From a phage, in sequence record PQ374922.1: a stretch of DNA of 64,000 nt; one strand, written 5' to 3'. A program made the position numbers and the translations under genes. The notes beneath the pieces were generated by a model. The model was not told the origin of the DNA and did no database searches. It was given only the letters and a program-made list of their open reading frames with translations. Of this stretch, positions 1,268 through 61,917 are shown piece after piece (position 1 is the first letter of the stretch; every line of letters starts with the position of its first letter).

Positions 1268-1275
1268 TATTTATA
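1268..1275 (-). promoter_or_regulatory. T4-type late promoter (TATAAATA)
   Basis: Exact TATAAATA on the minus strand, about 35 nt upstream of the start codon at 1233. Confidence 0.6.
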
Positions 1276-21642: not shown

Positions 21643-21673
21643 TTAAATAGATAGAGTGTTATGGCTATTTAGG
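21643..21673. promoter_or_regulatory. Divergent late-promoter-like inverted repeat (TTAAATAG ... CTATTTAGG)
   Basis: Two TAAATA cores in opposite orientation between the divergent starts at 21631 (-) and 21682 (+). Confidence 0.3.
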
Positions 21674-27979: not shown

Positions 27980-28267
27980 TCAACCCTCTACAGTAGCATC
28001 GGGATCGTAGGGGCGCAGTTCACCAACCAGTTTCGGAAAGAGTGCAATCCCGAACAGGTTGAAAGAACGCATAGTGCCTACCATTGCAACATCTTCCCCT
28101 TCCTCGATATCTTTCAGGGCGCACATTGGGTAATATTCATCGACCTCTGGGTCTTCCGTCTCACCATAGAGACCAAACGCCACCTCTTCTTTGATAAAGC
28201 GAGGAACCAGGAAATCAAATAGGAAAATGATGAATACCACAGGTGCCGCAGAACGGAGATAGAACAT
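27980..28267 (-). CDS. Hypothetical protein with N-terminal hydrophobic segment (95 aa)
   Basis: AAPVVFIIFLFDFLV hydrophobic stretch. Confidence 0.4.
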   Translation of the reverse strand: MFYLRSAAPVVFIIFLFDFLVPRFIKEEVAFGLYGETEDPEVDEYYPMCALKDIEEGEDVAMVGTMRSFNLFGIALFPKLVGELRPYDPDATVEG

Positions 28268-43600: not shown

Positions 43601-43815
43601 TTGGATTCACCGACGAGCTGCGCCTTGGTCATCCCAAGGAGTTGATCTTTATGCTCAGGATTGGCACCGTTCTTTAACAACAAATCCCAACGCTCTTCAT
43701 GGTACTGTGGGTCCAGTGCTTCATCAAATGTGATGTGGTGGCGGAACATAATAGTTGCCACTGAATGGACACAGTGAGCGATTGCGCGCTTCATTGTTCG
43801 GGTATTCTTGATCAT
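43597..43815 (-). CDS. Hypothetical protein (72 aa)
   Basis: ORF overlapping the start of the 370-aa gene. Confidence 0.4.
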   Translation of the reverse strand: MIKNTRTMKRAIAHCVHSVATIMFRHHITFDEALDPQYHEERWDLLLKNGANPEHKDQLLGMTKAQLVGESK

Positions 43816-43983
43816 TTGGATTCTCCCATGACGATAACGGAAGCGCCAAAAGTCGCTTCCATGTTGAGTAGAGACATATCTTCAATTCGTTGCATTGCCA
43901 TGATGTATATTCTTGCAAAAAGAAAGGGGAACGGGCTAATAATAACCCATTCCCCTTTATTGAAGGAAGCAACCCCAGTCAGA

Positions 43984-44151
43984 TTACTTTTTCTTCAGCT
44001 CTTCCAGTTTGGCTTCGATCTGGTCCAGAATCTCTTTGCCTTTCTGAACAATCACTTCACCATCTTGCGCGTGTTTACGGAAGACCAGAGCACCAGCGAT
44101 GAAGCCGACAACCGCGCCAGGAAGCGCATAAACCAGCAGATCTTGTAACAT
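43984..44151 (-). CDS. Small membrane protein (55 aa) expressed from a late promoter
   Basis: ATG with GAGGA RBS; one TM helix (LLVYALPGAVVGFIAGALVF) plus amphipathic C-terminus; exact TATAAATA 29 nt upstream. Below the 60-aa cutoff of the ORF track. Confidence 0.45.
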   Translation of the reverse strand: MLQDLLVYALPGAVVGFIAGALVFRKHAQDGEVIVQKGKEILDQIEAKLEELKKK

Positions 44152-44179
44152 GATAATATCCTCGCTTTATAGGCGAGGA

Positions 44180-44187
44180 TATTTATA
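44180..44187 (-). promoter_or_regulatory. T4-type late promoter (TATAAATA)
   Basis: Exact TATAAATA on the minus strand, directly after the stop of the 411-aa gene and upstream of the 55-aa ORF. Confidence 0.5.
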
Positions 44188-45423
44188 TCAGCGTTTCAAG
44201 AGTGTCATGAGGTTGACGCTGCTGGACTTCGGCTTGTCCTCAACCTTGCGCACAGGCATCTTCAGGTTCGTACATACCTCGGACGGTTCCCAGCGCGTAC
44301 CCTTTTGCAGGTGCCAGATATGCAGAGGAACACCAGTCTCAAAGAACACAGGCATCTTCCACTTCTGGACGCCTGGAACGTGCCCTACAGGAGCCTTTTC
44401 GCACAACAGGGTATCTGGCAGCCAGAGCGAACGGGCTTCCCAGAGCGCTGCGCAGGAGTATTCAGGCCAGACGCGTTCCATGTAGTCTATCTCATCCCAG
44501 GTACGCTCTGCGTCCCACCCGATGTAACGGGTATTCTTCAGTCGGAAGAATTTCTTCAGCCAACAAGCGCCGGAGGTTTCAAAGTTCAGGCGGTTGATGA
44601 ACGTCAGGTGCCCGAACTCAGCCACACAATCCTGGAACGCCTGCTCAAGGTCGGCCTCAAGGATGTCACACTCTTCATCCGTGATAGCACAACCGTTGAT
44701 CTTTTTCTTCCCGTGTTTAGTCACCCAATCGTCACGGTTGGACAAGAACGCCGCGCCATTACGGTTGGACTCGCTTCCATCACGATCACGCAGCATGAAG
44801 CCAGGGACGTCAATGGTGTATTCGTTCCCGAAGACCATGTTCAGGGCTTCCAGGAAGTTCCAGGCGCTCAGGCGACCGAAGTATTTCCAGGACATCGCCG
44901 TGTCCCACAGCTGGGTGAATTGTTCTGTCTTATCGATGCACACCAACATCCCACGGAAAGCGTCATATTGAGTACGGCCAGCCAGCCAGTCAATATAGGA
45001 CTGAACACACGGGATCATCTTGGACTTGCGGTAGCGACAGTCGGTATCGAATCGCATGCGTTCAAAGTTCAGATTATACCAATCAGAGAAGCGCTGCATC
45101 TCTTCCTTAGACTGAGGCGGCACAGGGAACTCACTGTAGATCGTCCACGGTCCGACGGCGTTATAGCAACAACCCCACAGGAATGCCATCCAGATCTTGC
45201 GCTCGACTTTCTGTTCGAGGCTGATGCCTTCAGTGACTTCGATCGCATAGTCCATCAGACGCATCTGCTGGTTGTGCTCTTCTGTGTAGGACAGCGCCTC
45301 CACCCAAGCCTTGAGCAGGTACATGCGATTCTCAGGCTTGCGATAATCAACAGCCAGGTCAATCGGGTACTTCCATTCAGCCGGAGGCGTATAGCCCGTC
45401 GGCATTTTAGATAAATGATGCAT
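44188..45423 (-). CDS. Hypothetical enzyme-sized protein (411 aa, Trp/aromatic-rich)
   Basis: Long ORF, last in an operon with the P-loop kinase; no nucleotidyltransferase KxDG or other motif recognised. Confidence 0.6.
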   Translation of the reverse strand: MHHLSKMPTGYTPPAEWKYPIDLAVDYRKPENRMYLLKAWVEALSYTEEHNQQMRLMDYAIEVTEGISLEQKVERKIWMAFLWGCCYNAVGPWTIYSEFPVPPQSKEEMQRFSDWYNLNFERMRFDTDCRYRKSKMIPCVQSYIDWLAGRTQYDAFRGMLVCIDKTEQFTQLWDTAMSWKYFGRLSAWNFLEALNMVFGNEYTIDVPGFMLRDRDGSESNRNGAAFLSNRDDWVTKHGKKKINGCAITDEECDILEADLEQAFQDCVAEFGHLTFINRLNFETSGACWLKKFFRLKNTRYIGWDAERTWDEIDYMERVWPEYSCAALWEARSLWLPDTLLCEKAPVGHVPGVQKWKMPVFFETGVPLHIWHLQKGTRWEPSEVCTNLKMPVRKVEDKPKSSSVNLMTLLKR

Positions 45424-45784
45424 CTTTCGCTTCCTCTTCAGGAGCCACAGCTTCAGGCTCAGGAGCCAGCTGAATGTCTTCTGGTTTCACGAACCCCATC
45501 GGACGTTCCCACATATCGACAAAGCGACGGTCAGCGGTCACGAACCACAGACGGGCTGCGGTGTGGGTCTTACTCGAGATGAACATCTGAGCGTTCGTCT
45601 GGGTACGGAACGGAGCAGCCTGCAACCACTTGCCAAAGTCTTTGGACGACGGATTGGCATTCAGTTGGAACTGAGGGATGACGCAGTTCTTTTCAGGAAT
45701 CAGGCGCACGGCAGTAATGTGCTTGGCGTTTCCGGTGTAGTCAATCGCAACAGCCACAGCATCGCGAGGGATTTGAATTTTCAT
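45407..45784 (-). CDS. Hypothetical protein (about 126 aa from internal ATG)
   Basis: ATG at 45784 with AAGGAA RBS, overlapping the stop of the upstream small ORF (ATGA). Confidence 0.45.
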   Translation of the reverse strand: MKIQIPRDAVAVAIDYTGNAKHITAVRLIPEKNCVIPQFQLNANPSSKDFGKWLQAAPFRTQTNAQMFISSKTHTAARLWFVTADRRFVDMWERPMGFVKPEDIQLAPEPEAVAPEEEAKDASFI

Positions 45785-45984
45785 TTTGGTTCCTTGAATA
45801 TTTTGTAACCAGCAGCGCCGATAGACATCACCGCGCCAATACAGTACATCACAGTCACGTTCAACTTCTCTGAGGTTGTTAAGTCCAGAGGGGTGAAATG
45901 ATAGGCTAGGGCAGTACACATTGAAACGGCTGCCATAACCAGACCAATGAACAACAGATAATTAGACAACCGTTTCATGATCAC
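45781..45984 (-). CDS. Small membrane protein (67 aa, two TM helices)
   Basis: LLFIGLVMAAVSMCTALAY and VMYCIGAVMSIGAAGY; coupled to neighbours on both sides. Confidence 0.45.
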   Translation of the reverse strand: MIMKRLSNYLLFIGLVMAAVSMCTALAYHFTPLDLTTSEKLNVTVMYCIGAVMSIGAAGYKIFKEPK

Positions 45985-46898
45985 CCCTTCTTCATCAGGT
46001 CAAGGAGAGAGCGCGACGCTGCCTTCGTTGCTTCTGGCTGGGCGCTCGCCTTGGTTTTAGTTTTGGATGCCTTCTGCGGCTTCTCAGGGACTCTGTGCGC
46101 CAAAGGATCATGGCCGCCAACCTCACGAGTCATCGGATTGGTTTCACAGTAGGCGTAGAAGTCTTTGGTGTGTATGTCAACACCACGCAGTTCAGAGCGT
46201 ATCTGATGACAAATCGCATTACCCACAACCCACAGCGGGGCGTCGAACGGTAGTACCGCCAACTCGGACTGCTGTTTGGTCGTGAACTCCTGGGTGTTGG
46301 CATCCGGTGATTTATACAGGATATCCTGTCCGCTGTAATCATCAACAGCCACAGTGAAGCCCAGCGCCAGCATTTCGGCCTTCGACTTCTCAAACTCCTT
46401 GTAGTAAGATTCGTTGCGCGACCAGCCGGAGTTCCCTGCTTCTTTACCAGATCGACCACGGATACGAGCATCGTACTGATAGCGGTCGGGGTACGCAAAG
46501 TACAGCAGCGCCAATGATTCAATCGGATAGTTCTTGAACATCCATTCAGGACGCCATTTGTCCGACAGCATGAGAGGTTCGCCCTCGCACACCAGAGTGT
46601 ATCCCTGAACCAACCAGCACTTGATTAGATCACGAGCAATATCGCCTGAGCCTGTAGCAGCATGGATTGCATCCATTGAAGTCCAGGAAGCCAGGCCGGA
46701 TTTGTTAGACACGGTGTACTGTCCAACGAAGATTAACTTCAGCTCTCCGAACTTCAAGCCAAACGGGCGAGTCTTGTCACCAACGGTGTAGGTCAGTTCG
46801 GTAGGCTCCAGCTTCGTACGGAGCCATTCGATGAACTGGACCACTCTCGTACCCTTGCCCGTGGCCGAGGTGCCTTTCACTACAATTATTTTAGCCAT
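45981..46898 (-). CDS. P-loop kinase-like protein (305 aa) with Lys/Ala/Thr-rich C-terminal tail
   Basis: N-terminal Walker A VKGTSATGKGT; no HAD DxDGT motif, so not a T4 Pnkp-type bifunctional enzyme. Confidence 0.6.
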   Translation of the reverse strand: MAKIIVVKGTSATGKGTRVVQFIEWLRTKLEPTELTYTVGDKTRPFGLKFGELKLIFVGQYTVSNKSGLASWTSMDAIHAATGSGDIARDLIKCWLVQGYTLVCEGEPLMLSDKWRPEWMFKNYPIESLALLYFAYPDRYQYDARIRGRSGKEAGNSGWSRNESYYKEFEKSKAEMLALGFTVAVDDYSGQDILYKSPDANTQEFTTKQQSELAVLPFDAPLWVVGNAICHQIRSELRGVDIHTKDFYAYCETNPMTREVGGHDPLAHRVPEKPQKASKTKTKASAQPEATKAASRSLLDLMKKG

Positions 46899-54128: not shown

Positions 54129-54272
54129 GTTGGGTTCCTCATTGGGTTAGCCATATGGGGTATTTAGGCTTCCCGCTTGGCGAGGTCTGGTTTGTACAGG
54201 ACGCCTCTAGGAAATATTGGAGGAAGGTTTCATAGATACCCCACACTGGTTGTATGGGGTATTTAGGAGGGA

Positions 54273-59773: not shown

Positions 59774-60138
59774 TCCGGAGCCTCACTGGATTGATTAAAT
59801 GTCTCCGTTATTATATTGGGAGTATGTTTATTGAATATAAACACAGGAATGGCCAATAAAACAATGACAGTGATTATTAATAGGCAAAAACTACTTTTCT
59901 ACAACATCAAGAAACTGTATCCTAACGCAGTGCCCTTCGAGTTGTGAGTGTTAACGAACAACGAGAAGCAGCCTCCATGGCTGTGGAATGGTGCTGCCCG
60001 CATAGGGCGGTGTTACGAGCGAGGGCGTCAGCCCCCTCGCGAGTTATATTAGAATAAATTAAACGCGCGCGAGCGTTTTGATTCCCGTTGGCTAAATATC
60101 TTCAACACCATATTCAAACTCAGGTGATGGAGATTATC

Positions 60139-61917
60139 ATGGCCACGCAAACAGTCCCTTCACTCGATGTCAGGGCTTTCGAGTATCTTATCAAGAAGCG
60201 CATGAAAGCTGATCCAACTTTCAAGGATTATGACTTTGAAGGTTCTGGTCTCAGTGCAATCGTGCGTATCTTGGCCTCGGATGCCAACTCTATCGGGTTC
60301 ATGCAGAACATGCTGAATGGCGAAAGCCATCTTCACTCTGCTCAACAGCGTTCTAATGTCGGTCTGGCGGCGGGGTTCTTATCTTACACCCCTCACAACT
60401 ACCAGGCAGCGTACCTGTACGCAAACGTCACAGTCACTCCATATGACGCCAGCACGGCTCCAGACACGATTGTGATGGATCGCCGCGCGATGTTCATTGG
60501 GGTGAAGGATGGAAAATCCTATAACTTCACGGTTGACCAACCTGTGAGTGCCTCTCTTGTAGACGGCTCTTACAAGTTCGAGAACATCAAACTCATACAG
60601 GGTAACTGGCTGTACAAGTCCTATGATGTGGAAGGCAGCGCGATCTCCACCTATGTGATCCCATCTTCTTCCGTGGACATCGACCATATGGTGGTGCAGG
60701 TGCAGGAATCTGAGACATCTGACGTGCGGTCTACCTTCTCACGATATGTCAGCCCGTTCGATTTGAGCCAGTATGCGCAACTCTACTTCGTTGAGCTGGG
60801 GTTGGAAGGGATGTACACGTTCGAATTCGGTGATGGGTATATCTGTAAGCGAGTAGAAGACGGGAACGTCGTGTACCTCCAGTATCTGGAGACAGCTGGT
60901 GCAGACGGCAATGACATCACTGCCTTGTCCTCCGCGTCTTCCATCGGGGGATTCAACCTTGTAGATGTTGAGCTGGTGTCAGAACGTTCTTCCGGTGGTA
61001 AGGACCCAGAGAGCATTGAGGACATCAAGCGTCTTGCTCCGCTGGCTTATCAGGCTGAGGGTGCGGCAGTGGCCGAAGTCGATTATGCTGTGTTGACCGA
61101 GCGTCTGTTCTCCAACGTCTCCCGCGCCAAAGCATATGGCGGCGACACGCTCTCTCCGCCTGACTCCGGATACGTTTACATTGCTGTGATACCTTCTGTT
61201 GGTGAGGCGCTCTCGGACGCTGAGAAGGCAGATATCGTGGCGACGTTGGACAAGTACAATGTGGGCACGATCACACCCAAGATTGTCGACGCTGAACTGA
61301 CTTATGTTGATGTCACCACCCGCGTGTTCTGGGATCCGACTTCCACGTCCTATACCGAAGAGCAGTTGAAGACAGTCGTGAAGAACGGTGTTGTCAACTG
61401 GGGCTTGGGGAATCTAGAAGGATTCGACGAACTGTTTGATAAAGAGCAGTTGCAGTCGGCCATCACCGACATGGACAGATCGATAGTGTCAAACATCACT
61501 TCTGTGAAGTATAAGCGCCATTTCAAGCCAGACTATGGGGTACTGGACAGCTTCACGTTCGATTATGGGCGCTCGATTGCGTCTGGTTCTGTGCGTATCA
61601 GTGGGTTTAAGCCGCTTCCGGCCGAGGTCGAATTCACTTACTACATACGCGACGTCAGTGGTGTCCTGAATATGTACAAGGTGAGTACAACAGACACGAC
61701 CAAGGAATATCTGGTACAAGCTGTTGGAACGGTTGATTATGTGACTGGCGTTGTTGAACTCCAGCGTATCATAGTATCCAACTACAACACTGAGGGTGTG
61801 ACAATAATTGTGTCTCCAGACGGTCTTGATCAGAACATTCAGGCCACACAGAATCAGGTGCTCCGCATCGGTGCTGTAACTGTGGAGCCGGAGGTGCGTT
61901 ATGTCCAAAGATCTTAA
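60139..61917 (+). CDS. Baseplate wedge protein (gp6 / P2 gpJ-like)
   Basis: About 590 aa; FEFGDGY-type segment typical of baseplate J-like proteins; ATG at 60139 with GGAG RBS; CTAAATAT late-like motif upstream. Confidence 0.55.
   Translation: MATQTVPSLDVRAFEYLIKKRMKADPTFKDYDFEGSGLSAIVRILASDANSIGFMQNMLNGESHLHSAQQRSNVGLAAGFLSYTPHNYQAAYLYANVTVTPYDASTAPDTIVMDRRAMFIGVKDGKSYNFTVDQPVSASLVDGSYKFENIKLIQGNWLYKSYDVEGSAISTYVIPSSSVDIDHMVVQVQESETSDVRSTFSRYVSPFDLSQYAQLYFVELGLEGMYTFEFGDGYICKRVEDGNVVYLQYLETAGADGNDITALSSASSIGGFNLVDVELVSERSSGGKDPESIEDIKRLAPLAYQAEGAAVAEVDYAVLTERLFSNVSRAKAYGGDTLSPPDSGYVYIAVIPSVGEALSDAEKADIVATLDKYNVGTITPKIVDAELTYVDVTTRVFWDPTSTSYTEEQLKTVVKNGVVNWGLGNLEGFDELFDKEQLQSAITDMDRSIVSNITSVKYKRHFKPDYGVLDSFTFDYGRSIASGSVRISGFKPLPAEVEFTYYIRDVSGVLNMYKVSTTDTTKEYLVQAVGTVDYVTGVVELQRIIVSNYNTEGVTIIVSPDGLDQNIQATQNQVLRIGAVTVEPEVRYVQRS

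Follow-up and report, generated by a model that had tools for sequence, protein, structure and literature searches.

A small membrane-protein gene of an Ackermannviridae phage and its predicted late-only expression cassette

A 55-aa open reading frame (ORF) in the phage sequence PQ374922.1 raises a simple question: why should what looks like a T4-type late promoter stand before a small gene at the end of a block of genes for replication, nucleotide metabolism and DNA modification? The stretch analysed, called the window here, is 64,000 nucleotides long, and the ORF lies on its minus strand, downstream of the gene for an alpha-glutamyl/putrescinyl thymine pyrophosphorylase (aGPT-Pplase, or Pplase). 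A first inspection of the letters (the sequence-only reading) had described an unannotated protein with a single transmembrane (TM) helix, driven by an exact late promoter, and had suggested a role in lysis or in the virion or membrane. The answer that we consider probable is that the small gene and its signals form an accessory late-gene cassette, complete in itself, that is placed at the 3′ end of an early/middle block and built for translation late in infection only. It would start with a gp55-type late promoter, continue with a hairpin masking the Shine-Dalgarno sequence and with the 55-aa ORF, and end in an intrinsic terminator.

In this proposal, transcripts started further upstream would read through the Pplase gene into the small ORF, and on such read-through RNA a helix of 10-15 bp would bury GAGGA and the first base of the AUG, leading to poor initiation. 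At late times, RNA polymerase equipped with the late sigma factor of the phage would start around 6 nt past TATAAATA, inside the 5′ arm of the hairpin; the resulting monocistronic RNA, of about 250 nt to the terminator, could not form the helix and would be translated well. The product would be a single-pass inner-membrane protein with an invariant GxxxG motif in its TM segment and a cytoplasmic amphipathic helix of around 30 residues. We infer four parts of this scheme, namely where late RNA starts, when the upstream genes are expressed, how the protein lies in the membrane and how it acts biochemically; the sequence elements and their conservation, the purifying selection on the ORF, the predicted stability of the hairpin and its conservation, and the distribution of the cassette among relatives are shown below.

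The small gene and its late-promoter box

The region of the window is 98.6% identical to Escherichia phage YX22 (Ackermannviridae, Aglimvirinae) and 85-98% identical to many Agtrevirus, Limestonevirus and Kuttervirus genomes. The 55-aa protein was matched in 227 phage records by tblastn, and in most of the related Ackermannviridae GenBank records examined the gene is called as a hypothetical or putative membrane protein; a few records bear no annotation at all. Orthologs already called as coding sequences (CDS) include YX22 WPH64590.1, LIMEstone1 ORF191, CBA120 orf249, phiSboM-AG3 (AG3) orf00248, Sajous1 gp101 and Vi01_200. Those of LIMEstone1, CBA120, AG3 and Vi01 are clearly the same gene, with 89-96% protein identity and the same place after the aGPT-Pplase gene. 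The LIMEstone1 record furthermore annotates a TM domain and a coiled coil in ORF191 and, at the matching sites, a terminator and a “putative late promoter”. The records of the annotated orthologs assign no function and make no mention of a hairpin occluding the Shine-Dalgarno sequence, which is described here. The ORF seemed unannotated because the ORF track available at the first stage cut off at 60 aa; it is only of that track that the word is true, as the gene is a CDS in most related records and belongs to a catalogued family, PHROG 3879. What is new here is the predicted late-only expression design, the bounded dispensable cassette and the link to a large family, the gene itself being already catalogued.

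The protein reads MLQDLLVYALPGAVVGFIAGALVFRKHAQDGEVIVQKGKEILDQIEAKLEELKKK. The ORF and its GAGGA ribosome-binding site are present on the minus strand, with the coordinates and spacing first given for them. When the small ORF was compared with 11 orthologs, the ratio of non-synonymous to synonymous substitution rates (dN/dS) was 0.02-0.10 (dS 0.2-0.7, dN 0.016-0.049), and the variable sites at codon positions 1, 2 and 3 numbered 4, 3 and 31. On this pattern the ORF is a real protein-coding gene that is under strong purifying selection. A lack of conservation in related phages had been named as the finding that would speak against the ORF, and instead it is strongly conserved. It is scarcely credible that this is a chance ORF, or a regulatory RNA region without a protein product. 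The ORF has only 55 codons for amino acids and bigger ORFs on the opposite strand overlap it, as might be expected of a chance reading frame; against this stand the low dN/dS, the 31 of 38 variable sites that fall at third codon positions, and protein relatives of full length, the most distant about 35% identical, which occur in unrelated phages and prophages. It is the selection pattern that effectively refutes the chance reading.

The final base of the box TATAAATA lies 29 positions before the A of the ATG, so the exact T4-type late-promoter sequence and its spacing were rightly noted; the box follows directly upon the upstream TGA (44190..44188). Its number of occurrences is not significant in itself: in the window the exact TATAAATA occurs 2 times against 0.64 expected, with 2 or more in 13 of 100 shuffles, and MTAAATA occurs 9 times against 6.8 expected, again not significant alone. 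A positional test was therefore used instead of count statistics. Among the 8 other MTAAATA boxes, 4 sit 32-40 nt before a Shine-Dalgarno-led ORF of at least 150 aa, where 1.2% of random positions do so (P ~1e-6). These four boxes, at 1268-1274(-), 21666-21672(-), 54161-54167(-) and 60092-60098(+), precede genes for a tail-tube-like protein, a baseplate tube cap, the baseplate wedge protein gp6 (box at 60092-60098) and a likely structural protein. Three of the downstream genes are tail or baseplate genes by PHROG and the fourth falls in a PHROG of unknown function; from its near-identical leader the latter is judged to be the counterpart of LIMEstone1 ORF174, a confirmed virion protein.

In LIMEstone1, scanned over 90-140 kb, boxes of this kind precede gp22, gp19, gp18, gp14, gp6 and the tailspikes. 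The annotated late promoters before structural genes confirmed there by mass spectrometry read NNCTAAATA, with TATAAATA as a minority variant, and therefore the late-box consensus of the family is CTAAATA, not the TATAAATA of T4. That CTAAATA outnumbers TATAAATA as the late box of the family should aid promoter annotation. The element before the small ORF has these sequence features of a T4-type late promoter: its box of 8 bp resembles TATAAATA, a -35 element is lacking, and boxes of this kind stand before bona fide structural genes in the same lineage.

Every Ackermannviridae ortholog leader examined keeps the box as TATAAATA, CTAAATA or CTAAGTA, in the same place and fused to the upstream stop codon. 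The fused forms are TGATATAAATA, CGCTAAATA and GCTAAGTA, with CCCTAAATA in phiMAM1. In the T4-like Erwinia phage FBB1, which encodes a distant homolog, the exact TATAAATA precedes the gene. It is position and conservation, not count, that make the box non-random. Furthermore, it is the only box of its kind in the minus-strand block of about 15 kb that extends from the DNA-polymerase gene to the rII genes; as the sole late box within an early/middle block, it would mark the small gene as a late gene in an early/middle region. Vi01-like phages have a late sigma factor among their listed core genes (PMC10892097), and no gene for one was found among the window ORFs scanned, including a search of those at 4.8-13 kb. 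In T4, AT-rich sequence is favoured immediately past the late box (PMC2988020); here the segment just past the box is GC-rich (TCCTCGCC), which fits selection for the anti-Shine-Dalgarno sequence considered below.

A predicted hairpin over the ribosome-binding site

The leader of the small ORF contains an inverted repeat, ATCCTCGC-ctataaa-GCGAGGAT, with the Shine-Dalgarno sequence in its 3′ arm. In the predicted RNA hairpin the 5′ arm is 44190..44173 (UGAUA-uaa-AUAUCCUCGC), the loop 44172..44166 (CUAUAAA) and the 3′ arm 44165..44151 (GCGAGGAUAU-UAUCA); the Shine-Dalgarno sequence and the A of the AUG are paired, and the 5′ arm overlaps the late-promoter box. The list of elements in the sequence-only reading was sound for the ORF, the Shine-Dalgarno sequence, the late box and the TM helix; it missed this hairpin, the terminator, and the fact that the usual box of the family is CTAAATA.

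Folded alone, the 38-nt hairpin with its 11-bp helix has a free energy of -15.9 kcal/mol (z = -5.5), and 0 of 200 shuffles were as stable. In longer contexts a 10-bp helix is joined by a 5-bp outer helix that reaches the A of the AUG; a 101-nt context folds at -35.4 kcal/mol (z = -6.6). For the region from -45 to +6 the value is -19.8 kcal/mol, with a pairing probability of 0.999 for the Shine-Dalgarno sequence, compared with a median of -8.25 kcal/mol over 88 greedily called gene starts in the window, of which only two are more stable. Greedy gene calling missed the small ORF, since a longer ORF on the opposite strand won, and its start was scored separately; by that score it would come about third among 89 translation-initiation regions of the window. 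RNA beginning at the predicted late start, 44174, would keep just 2 nt of the 5′ arm, and folds at -1.7 kcal/mol (z = +0.5) with the Shine-Dalgarno sequence largely free.

In an alignment of 15 distinct orthologous leaders, pairing in the inner helix amounts to 90.7%. Two base pairs are altered on both sides (for example from U-A to C-G in one leader, L097) and four are altered on one side via G-U wobble. Sliding the partner strand by 1-3 columns reduces pairing to 26-50%, compared to 84% in register; the observed pairing was reached by 0 of 500 shuffles and the covariation score by 1 of 500. The leaders of phiMAM1 and of the locus L028 could not be aligned in register by MAFFT and were excluded from the pair counts. 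In both, a hairpin of different sequence (AACTCaCT/AGGAGTT) still occludes the Shine-Dalgarno sequence, as does CTCTTGTT/AACAGGAG in FBB1, right after its TATAAATA. As far as leader sequences can tell, the rebuilding of the hairpin with other letters in unalignable leaders is stronger evidence of selection than the covariation. On predicted folding, then, the Shine-Dalgarno sequence and the first base of the AUG lie in a stable helix on transcripts from upstream promoters and, given the late start deduced from T4, the late RNA would be without the 5′ strand of this helix.

There is a precedent for such an arrangement. Long early transcripts of T4 e, soc, 49 and I-TevI, and also of segB and Aeh1 mobE, hide the ribosome-binding site (PMC3014915, PMC2988022), with around 100-fold repression by the helix in the case of gene e (PMC3014915); the late promoter of the gated genes lies in the DNA that encodes the 5′ strand, and its use gives translatable RNA (PMC3014915, PMC2988022). 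As in T4 e, soc, 49 and I-TevI, the small gene would be a late gene downstream of early/middle genes, with a stable helix that would sequester the Shine-Dalgarno sequence and the AUG on long transcripts. Unlike them, it belongs to the Ackermannviridae, whose usual box is CTAAATA, is another gene and has the upstream stop codon inside the stem, and its gating is a prediction from the sequence. The double-late design of T4, in which a late promoter is combined with a ribosome-binding site that is exposed only on late RNA, is thus predicted to be found also in the Ackermannviridae, phages in wide use against Salmonella, E. coli O157 and Dickeya. The importance of this is modest; it would be one more case, outside the T4 family, of a mechanism well known from T4.

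Several points weigh against late-only translation. The covariation is modest, the Shine-Dalgarno sequence and the box are constrained for other reasons, and the structure tested was derived from the window sequence itself. The late start at 44174 is borrowed by analogy from T4, where the late box is about one helical turn upstream of the start (PMC2988020), and the early/middle timing of the upstream block is deduced only from its gene content. The N-out/C-in topology of the product (MLQD before the TM helix, RKH after it) is predicted by the positive-inside rule. In the searchable literature neither a transcription start site nor RNA sequencing, ribosome-profiling or proteomic data for the small gene were found, and literature searches gave no Ackermannviridae transcriptome or start-site data and no functional study of it. 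Furthermore, the upstream TGA, 36 nt ahead of the ATG, is part of the outer stem of the hairpin, so that terminating ribosomes would melt part of the 5′ arm and the hairpin could couple translation instead of blocking it.

This last point leads to an alternative that we think unlikely but worth stating: the hairpin may be a translational-coupling device, a weak terminator or a stabiliser of RNA ends, and not an early block, in which case it would be one copy of a recurrent promoter/stem-loop module and the protein might be made before the late phase as well. The position of the upstream stop codon is in its favour, and so is the resemblance of promoter-fused stem-loops in LIMEstone1, some of them annotated as terminators, to the PeSL motifs of T4-like phages, in which a promoter and a terminator are combined (PMC4122927). 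A role in termination is difficult to reconcile with the lack of a proper U-tract (GAGGAUAUUAUCAUG), and the hairpin was not called by the terminator scan. As to coupling, the late transcript would lack the 5′ arm in any case, so unmasking specific to late RNA would still apply, and comparable helices in the T4 precedents give around 100-fold repression (PMC3014915). Late-only translation from a self-contained cassette is therefore still the reading that we prefer.

The fusion of a late box to a stem-loop is also seen at other genes. Late boxes of LIMEstone1 and of the window are fused to stem-loops of the form CTAAATACCCC...GGGGTAT or TAAATATCTTC...GGAGAT, in which the 3′ arm is the Shine-Dalgarno sequence of the next gene. 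Leaders of this type precede LIMEstone1 ORF129, the tailspike genes ORF159 and ORF160, ORF173 and the homing endonuclease genes I-LimII and F-LimVIII, and in the window gp6 (60092-60141(+)); some of the LIMEstone1 copies carry U-runs and are annotated as terminators. Since several LIMEstone1 late promoters are fused to stem-loops, the promoter/stem-loop module is a recurrent Ackermannviridae motif, and by analogy it looks like a late-promoter counterpart of the PeSL cassettes. Three other leaders of the window also have strong hairpins (-16.6 to -20.8 kcal/mol), those at 28267(-), 13962(+) and 55466(-), with pairing of the Shine-Dalgarno region of 0.98, 0.67 and 0.50; none of them has an MTAAATA box.

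Table 1. Positions in the window of the parts of the cassette and of the gene upstream of it.
Feature	Position	Strand	Basis
CDS, 55 aa, ATG to TAA	43984..44151	-	ORF list, dN/dS, PHROG 3879
Shine-Dalgarno sequence GAGGA, 7 nt before the ATG, within the 3′ arm of the hairpin	44159..44163	-	sequence
Late-promoter box TATAAATA; core shared with CTAAATA, 44186..44180	44180..44187	-	sequence, LIMEstone1 annotation, conservation
Predicted start of late RNA, the sixth nt (G) past the box	44174	-	T4 late-promoter geometry
Inverted repeat, predicted RNA hairpin on read-through transcripts	44151..44190	-	folding, conservation
Intrinsic terminator: 16-bp stem-loop 43958..43923, then CUUUUU	43915..43958	-	terminator scan, folding
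Upstream gene, 411-aa thymidine-hypermodification enzyme (aGPT-Pplase clade 2 / Pfam ADDT)	44188..45423	-	RPN242 annotation, PF18724, PHROG 3271

Borders and distribution of the cassette

On the downstream side the cassette is closed by the terminator, which begins 25 nt past the TAA and folds at -26.5 kcal/mol (z = -7.0). It has the longest stem of the terminator-like sites in 41-48 kb and is annotated as a terminator in LIMEstone1. A scan of the same 41-48 kb gave no terminator-like site between the Pplase gene and the small ORF. The identity of the 411-aa upstream gene is indicated by the annotation [quoted passage not shown] in phage RPN242, by the match of PF18724 (ADDT) in syntenic contigs and by PHROG 3271. 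The upstream block also holds a kinase gene and the DNA polymerase gene, the latter placed by correspondence with related phages; rIIA and rIIB are judged from size and synteny.

It is clear that the small gene is not present in all relatives. Two Taipeivirus genomes were read, those of Klebsiella phage Magnus and Serratia phage IME250; in both, the same terminator comes immediately after the stop codon of the Pplase gene, and promoter, hairpin and ORF are all missing. The neighbouring gene is matched by 44 Klebsiella (Taipeivirus) records, none of which gave a tblastn match to the small protein (E <= 0.01), and there is no similar ORF after the Pplase gene of Erwinia phage Bue1. In phiMAM1 the small gene is located elsewhere, near rIIA. 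More divergent metagenomic relatives retain the order HMUD2 ... ADDT - small ORF. On these comparisons the promoter-hairpin-ORF unit is a cleanly bounded, dispensable accessory cassette. The 3′ end of the Taipeivirus Pplase gene (CTGATGAAGAAATAACTGAGC; Magnus, contig L093 1680-1760, and IME250, contig L094) resembles the 3′ end of the small ORF (CTGAAGAAAAAGTAATCTGAC), and this resemblance could be a deletion scar.

A functional tie to thymidine hypermodification was considered and rejected, as in the Taipeivirus genomes and in Bue1 the Pplase gene occurs with no such ORF, which in phiMAM1 is located elsewhere.

An own promoter and terminator and precise boundaries of presence and absence are what is expected of a mobile regulatory cassette or “moron”, and all are found here. 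The unit resembles the PeSL cassettes and the morons of lambdoid phages in being a single accessory ORF between its own promoter-plus-stem-loop and a terminator (PMC2839356, PMC4122927), and in being present or absent between close relatives with sharp boundaries. It differs in that PeSLs carry early promoters, whereas that of the small-ORF cassette is a late one, and recombination at the motif is here only conjectural.

The protein, its possible role and the neighbouring genes

The single TM helix that had been called clear from the letters is supported both by hydropathy and by AlphaFold2. The best 19-residue Kyte-Doolittle window covers residues 5-23, with a mean of 2.23, and AlphaFold2, run with the family alignment, gives one continuous helix over residues 2-54, with a mean predicted local distance difference test (pLDDT) score of 86.8. 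The TM helix spans residues 5-24, with an invariant G16-x-x-x-G20, and is followed by R25 and by an amphipathic C-terminal helix with a heptad pattern; the C-terminal 28 residues are amphipathic and heptad-like with a net charge of around 0 (8 K+R, 8 D+E). This charge rules out a cationic peptide of the disruptin type.

The protein matches PHROG 3879, a family without an assigned function, over its full length (E = 9.5e-32, residues 2-55 against profile positions 1-54 of 54), and the match was found in 25 of 25 diverse relatives. A word-indexed search with the single sequence gave close relatives only, and it was exhaustive profile searches and searches seeded with alignments that revealed a wider family of at least 974 clusters at E <= 0.001, mostly of 40-60 aa. 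The family motif is VGF-x-AGALV-(F/Y)-R-(K/N)-(H/N)-A, in which G16, F17, V23 and R25 are invariant in the 25-sequence sample. Besides PHROG 3879, Pfam, NCBIfam and PHROG scans of the protein and the 25 relatives yielded only sub-threshold matches (glycine zipper, ZapG, the N-terminus of RNase Y, LapA). A tblastn search with the FBB1 homolog returned only FBB1 itself, and therefore no named T4 gene could be linked to the family. Among the public “relatives”, one differs from the small protein just as it would if each C had been read as G (Q>E, L>V, A>G, P>G, F>L, I>M, R>G); it evidently stems from an error of sequencing or assembly in a public run of a phage of this kind. PHROG 3879 is thereby flagged as a very large family of phage membrane proteins of 40-60 aa, encoded in late operons of unrelated phages, and a tractable lytic phage, in which the copy is dispensable and has clean borders, is well suited to the study of its function.

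Wherever they are found in other phages, relatives always lie in late regions, with varied neighbours. In 42-47 of 64 metagenomic viral loci, mostly of high GC content where this was checked, the relative stands between a tail-fibre gene and genes for a lipoprotein/TM protein and a weakly holin-like protein. These contexts support a late, membrane-associated and accessory role, and point weakly to lysis. In the commonest metagenomic clade (GC 58-65%, three loci) the small gene is followed by that of a 245-335-aa protein (L032 3113-3850, L036 3142-3897, L040 3136-4143) with an N-terminal lipoprotein signal (LAGC), a coiled coil and C-terminal TM segments, a shape that recalls a unimolecular spanin; a weakly holin-like membrane protein follows it, and neither matches a described family.

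What, then, might the protein do? A virion protein, one of the roles first suggested, is disfavoured: the ortholog is absent from the virion proteomes of LIMEstone1 (39 proteins) and of Sajous1, where it would be gp101. The orthologs went undetected in both mass-spectrometry lists despite having tryptic peptides of detectable length, although small membrane proteins can be missed. From its distribution and these lists the small protein appears to be a dispensable late function and not a part of the virion; it would most likely work through the association of helices in the membrane, either between its own copies or with a partner protein.

The other early suggestion, lysis, is taken here to mean that the protein could be a small holin, an antiholin or a modulator of timing that builds up late in the inner membrane and oligomerises through GxxxG. 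We regard this as doubtful. The features that recall holins, antiholins and i-spanins (small size, a membrane anchor of one TM domain, a charged hydrophilic C-terminus, late expression) are generic and do not discriminate; unlike members of those groups, the protein has no match in Pfam or PHROGs to a family of holins, antiholins or spanins. Ten products of neighbouring genes in the window were scanned as well, with no match to an endolysin or other lysis family, so that there is no linkage to endolysin or spanin genes among them. T4-type phages scatter their lysis genes, and for that reason the lack of clustering says little here. Relatives in Providencia prophages and in a viral contig (L064) do lie just downstream of holin-endolysin-Rz cassettes, and a membrane protein weakly matching a holin (phrog_6384, E = 4e-4) is encoded around 1 kb downstream in 42 of the 64 metagenomic loci; other relatives, however, lie in head-morphogenesis modules. 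Weak matches to an “Rz-like spanin” were seen in only 3 of the 25 relatives and are typical of a TM segment followed by a coiled coil. The failure to detect the gene in the 44 Taipeivirus records also counts against lysis. An Rz-type i-spanin in particular was excluded by the predicted N-out/C-in topology, the mere 4 periplasmic residues and the overall length of 55 aa.

Alternatively, the protein may be a membrane-anchored morphogenesis helper, that is, a non-virion chaperone or scaffold that tethers late assembly to the inner membrane, for which T4 gp40 may be a loose analogue. Late expression together with absence from virions would suit such a role, and several unrelated phage lineages hold the family in head modules, between capsid and head-tail connector genes. 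Nevertheless it seems quite improbable, as the gene is dispensable at the level of the phage family (Taipeivirus, Bue1), its genomic location varies widely among phages, and the Pfam and PHROG scans found no similarity to any assembly protein. More speculative again, and in our estimate very improbable, is the idea of a decoy: the small protein, perhaps together with the enterobacterial branch of PHROG 3879, would imitate the N-terminal TM and juxtamembrane segment of YhcB/ZapG/LapD (DUF1043), an envelope regulator of the host. Among the sequence leads this resemblance is the clearest. Like the N-terminal 50 residues of YhcB, the small protein has an N-terminal GxxxG TM helix followed by an arginine and a cytoplasmic helix; hhalign places residues 7-54 on YhcB 4-50 with 80.6% probability and 34-35% identity, and the TM segments align as YAL-G-VVG-I-GA---R. 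Sub-threshold ZapG matches, all weak, were found in 16 of the 25 relatives. The similarity stays far below the threshold for YhcB/ZapG, with 14.3 bits for NCBIfam NF008672 against a cut-off of 150; Pfam PF06295 gave no match to the window protein and a best E of 4.5e-4 among the 25 relatives. Unlike YhcB, the small protein ends at residue 55, where the conserved cytoplasmic interaction region of YhcB begins, and it lacks the DUF1043 domain of around 100 aa; its family also occurs in high-GC phages (GC 58-65%), whereas YhcB is described as gamma-proteobacterial (PMC8163987). TM residues of YhcB are needed for its interactions with RodZ and YciS/LapA (PMC8163987), and YhcB also restrains AccA (PMC12977641). 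A decoy, if it were one, would insert late beside the partners of YhcB and compete through the shared YAL-G-VVG-I-GA---R helix; the synthesis of fatty acids, lipopolysaccharide and peptidoglycan would be uncoupled, or the envelope weakened before lysis.

Two further observations concern the genes on either side. Upstream, the stretch 44188-46898(-) holds the aGPT-Pplase/ADDT gene and a 5-hmdU DNA kinase gene (HMUD2; labelled “guanylate kinase” in PHROGs), with several genes for small membrane proteins between them. Just past the terminator, at 43812-43901(-), a 29-aa ORF is an in-frame, internally deleted copy of the 70-aa LIMEstone1 ORF192 / AG3 orf00249; 41 residues are missing, and the ORF has an ATGA overlap with the next gene.

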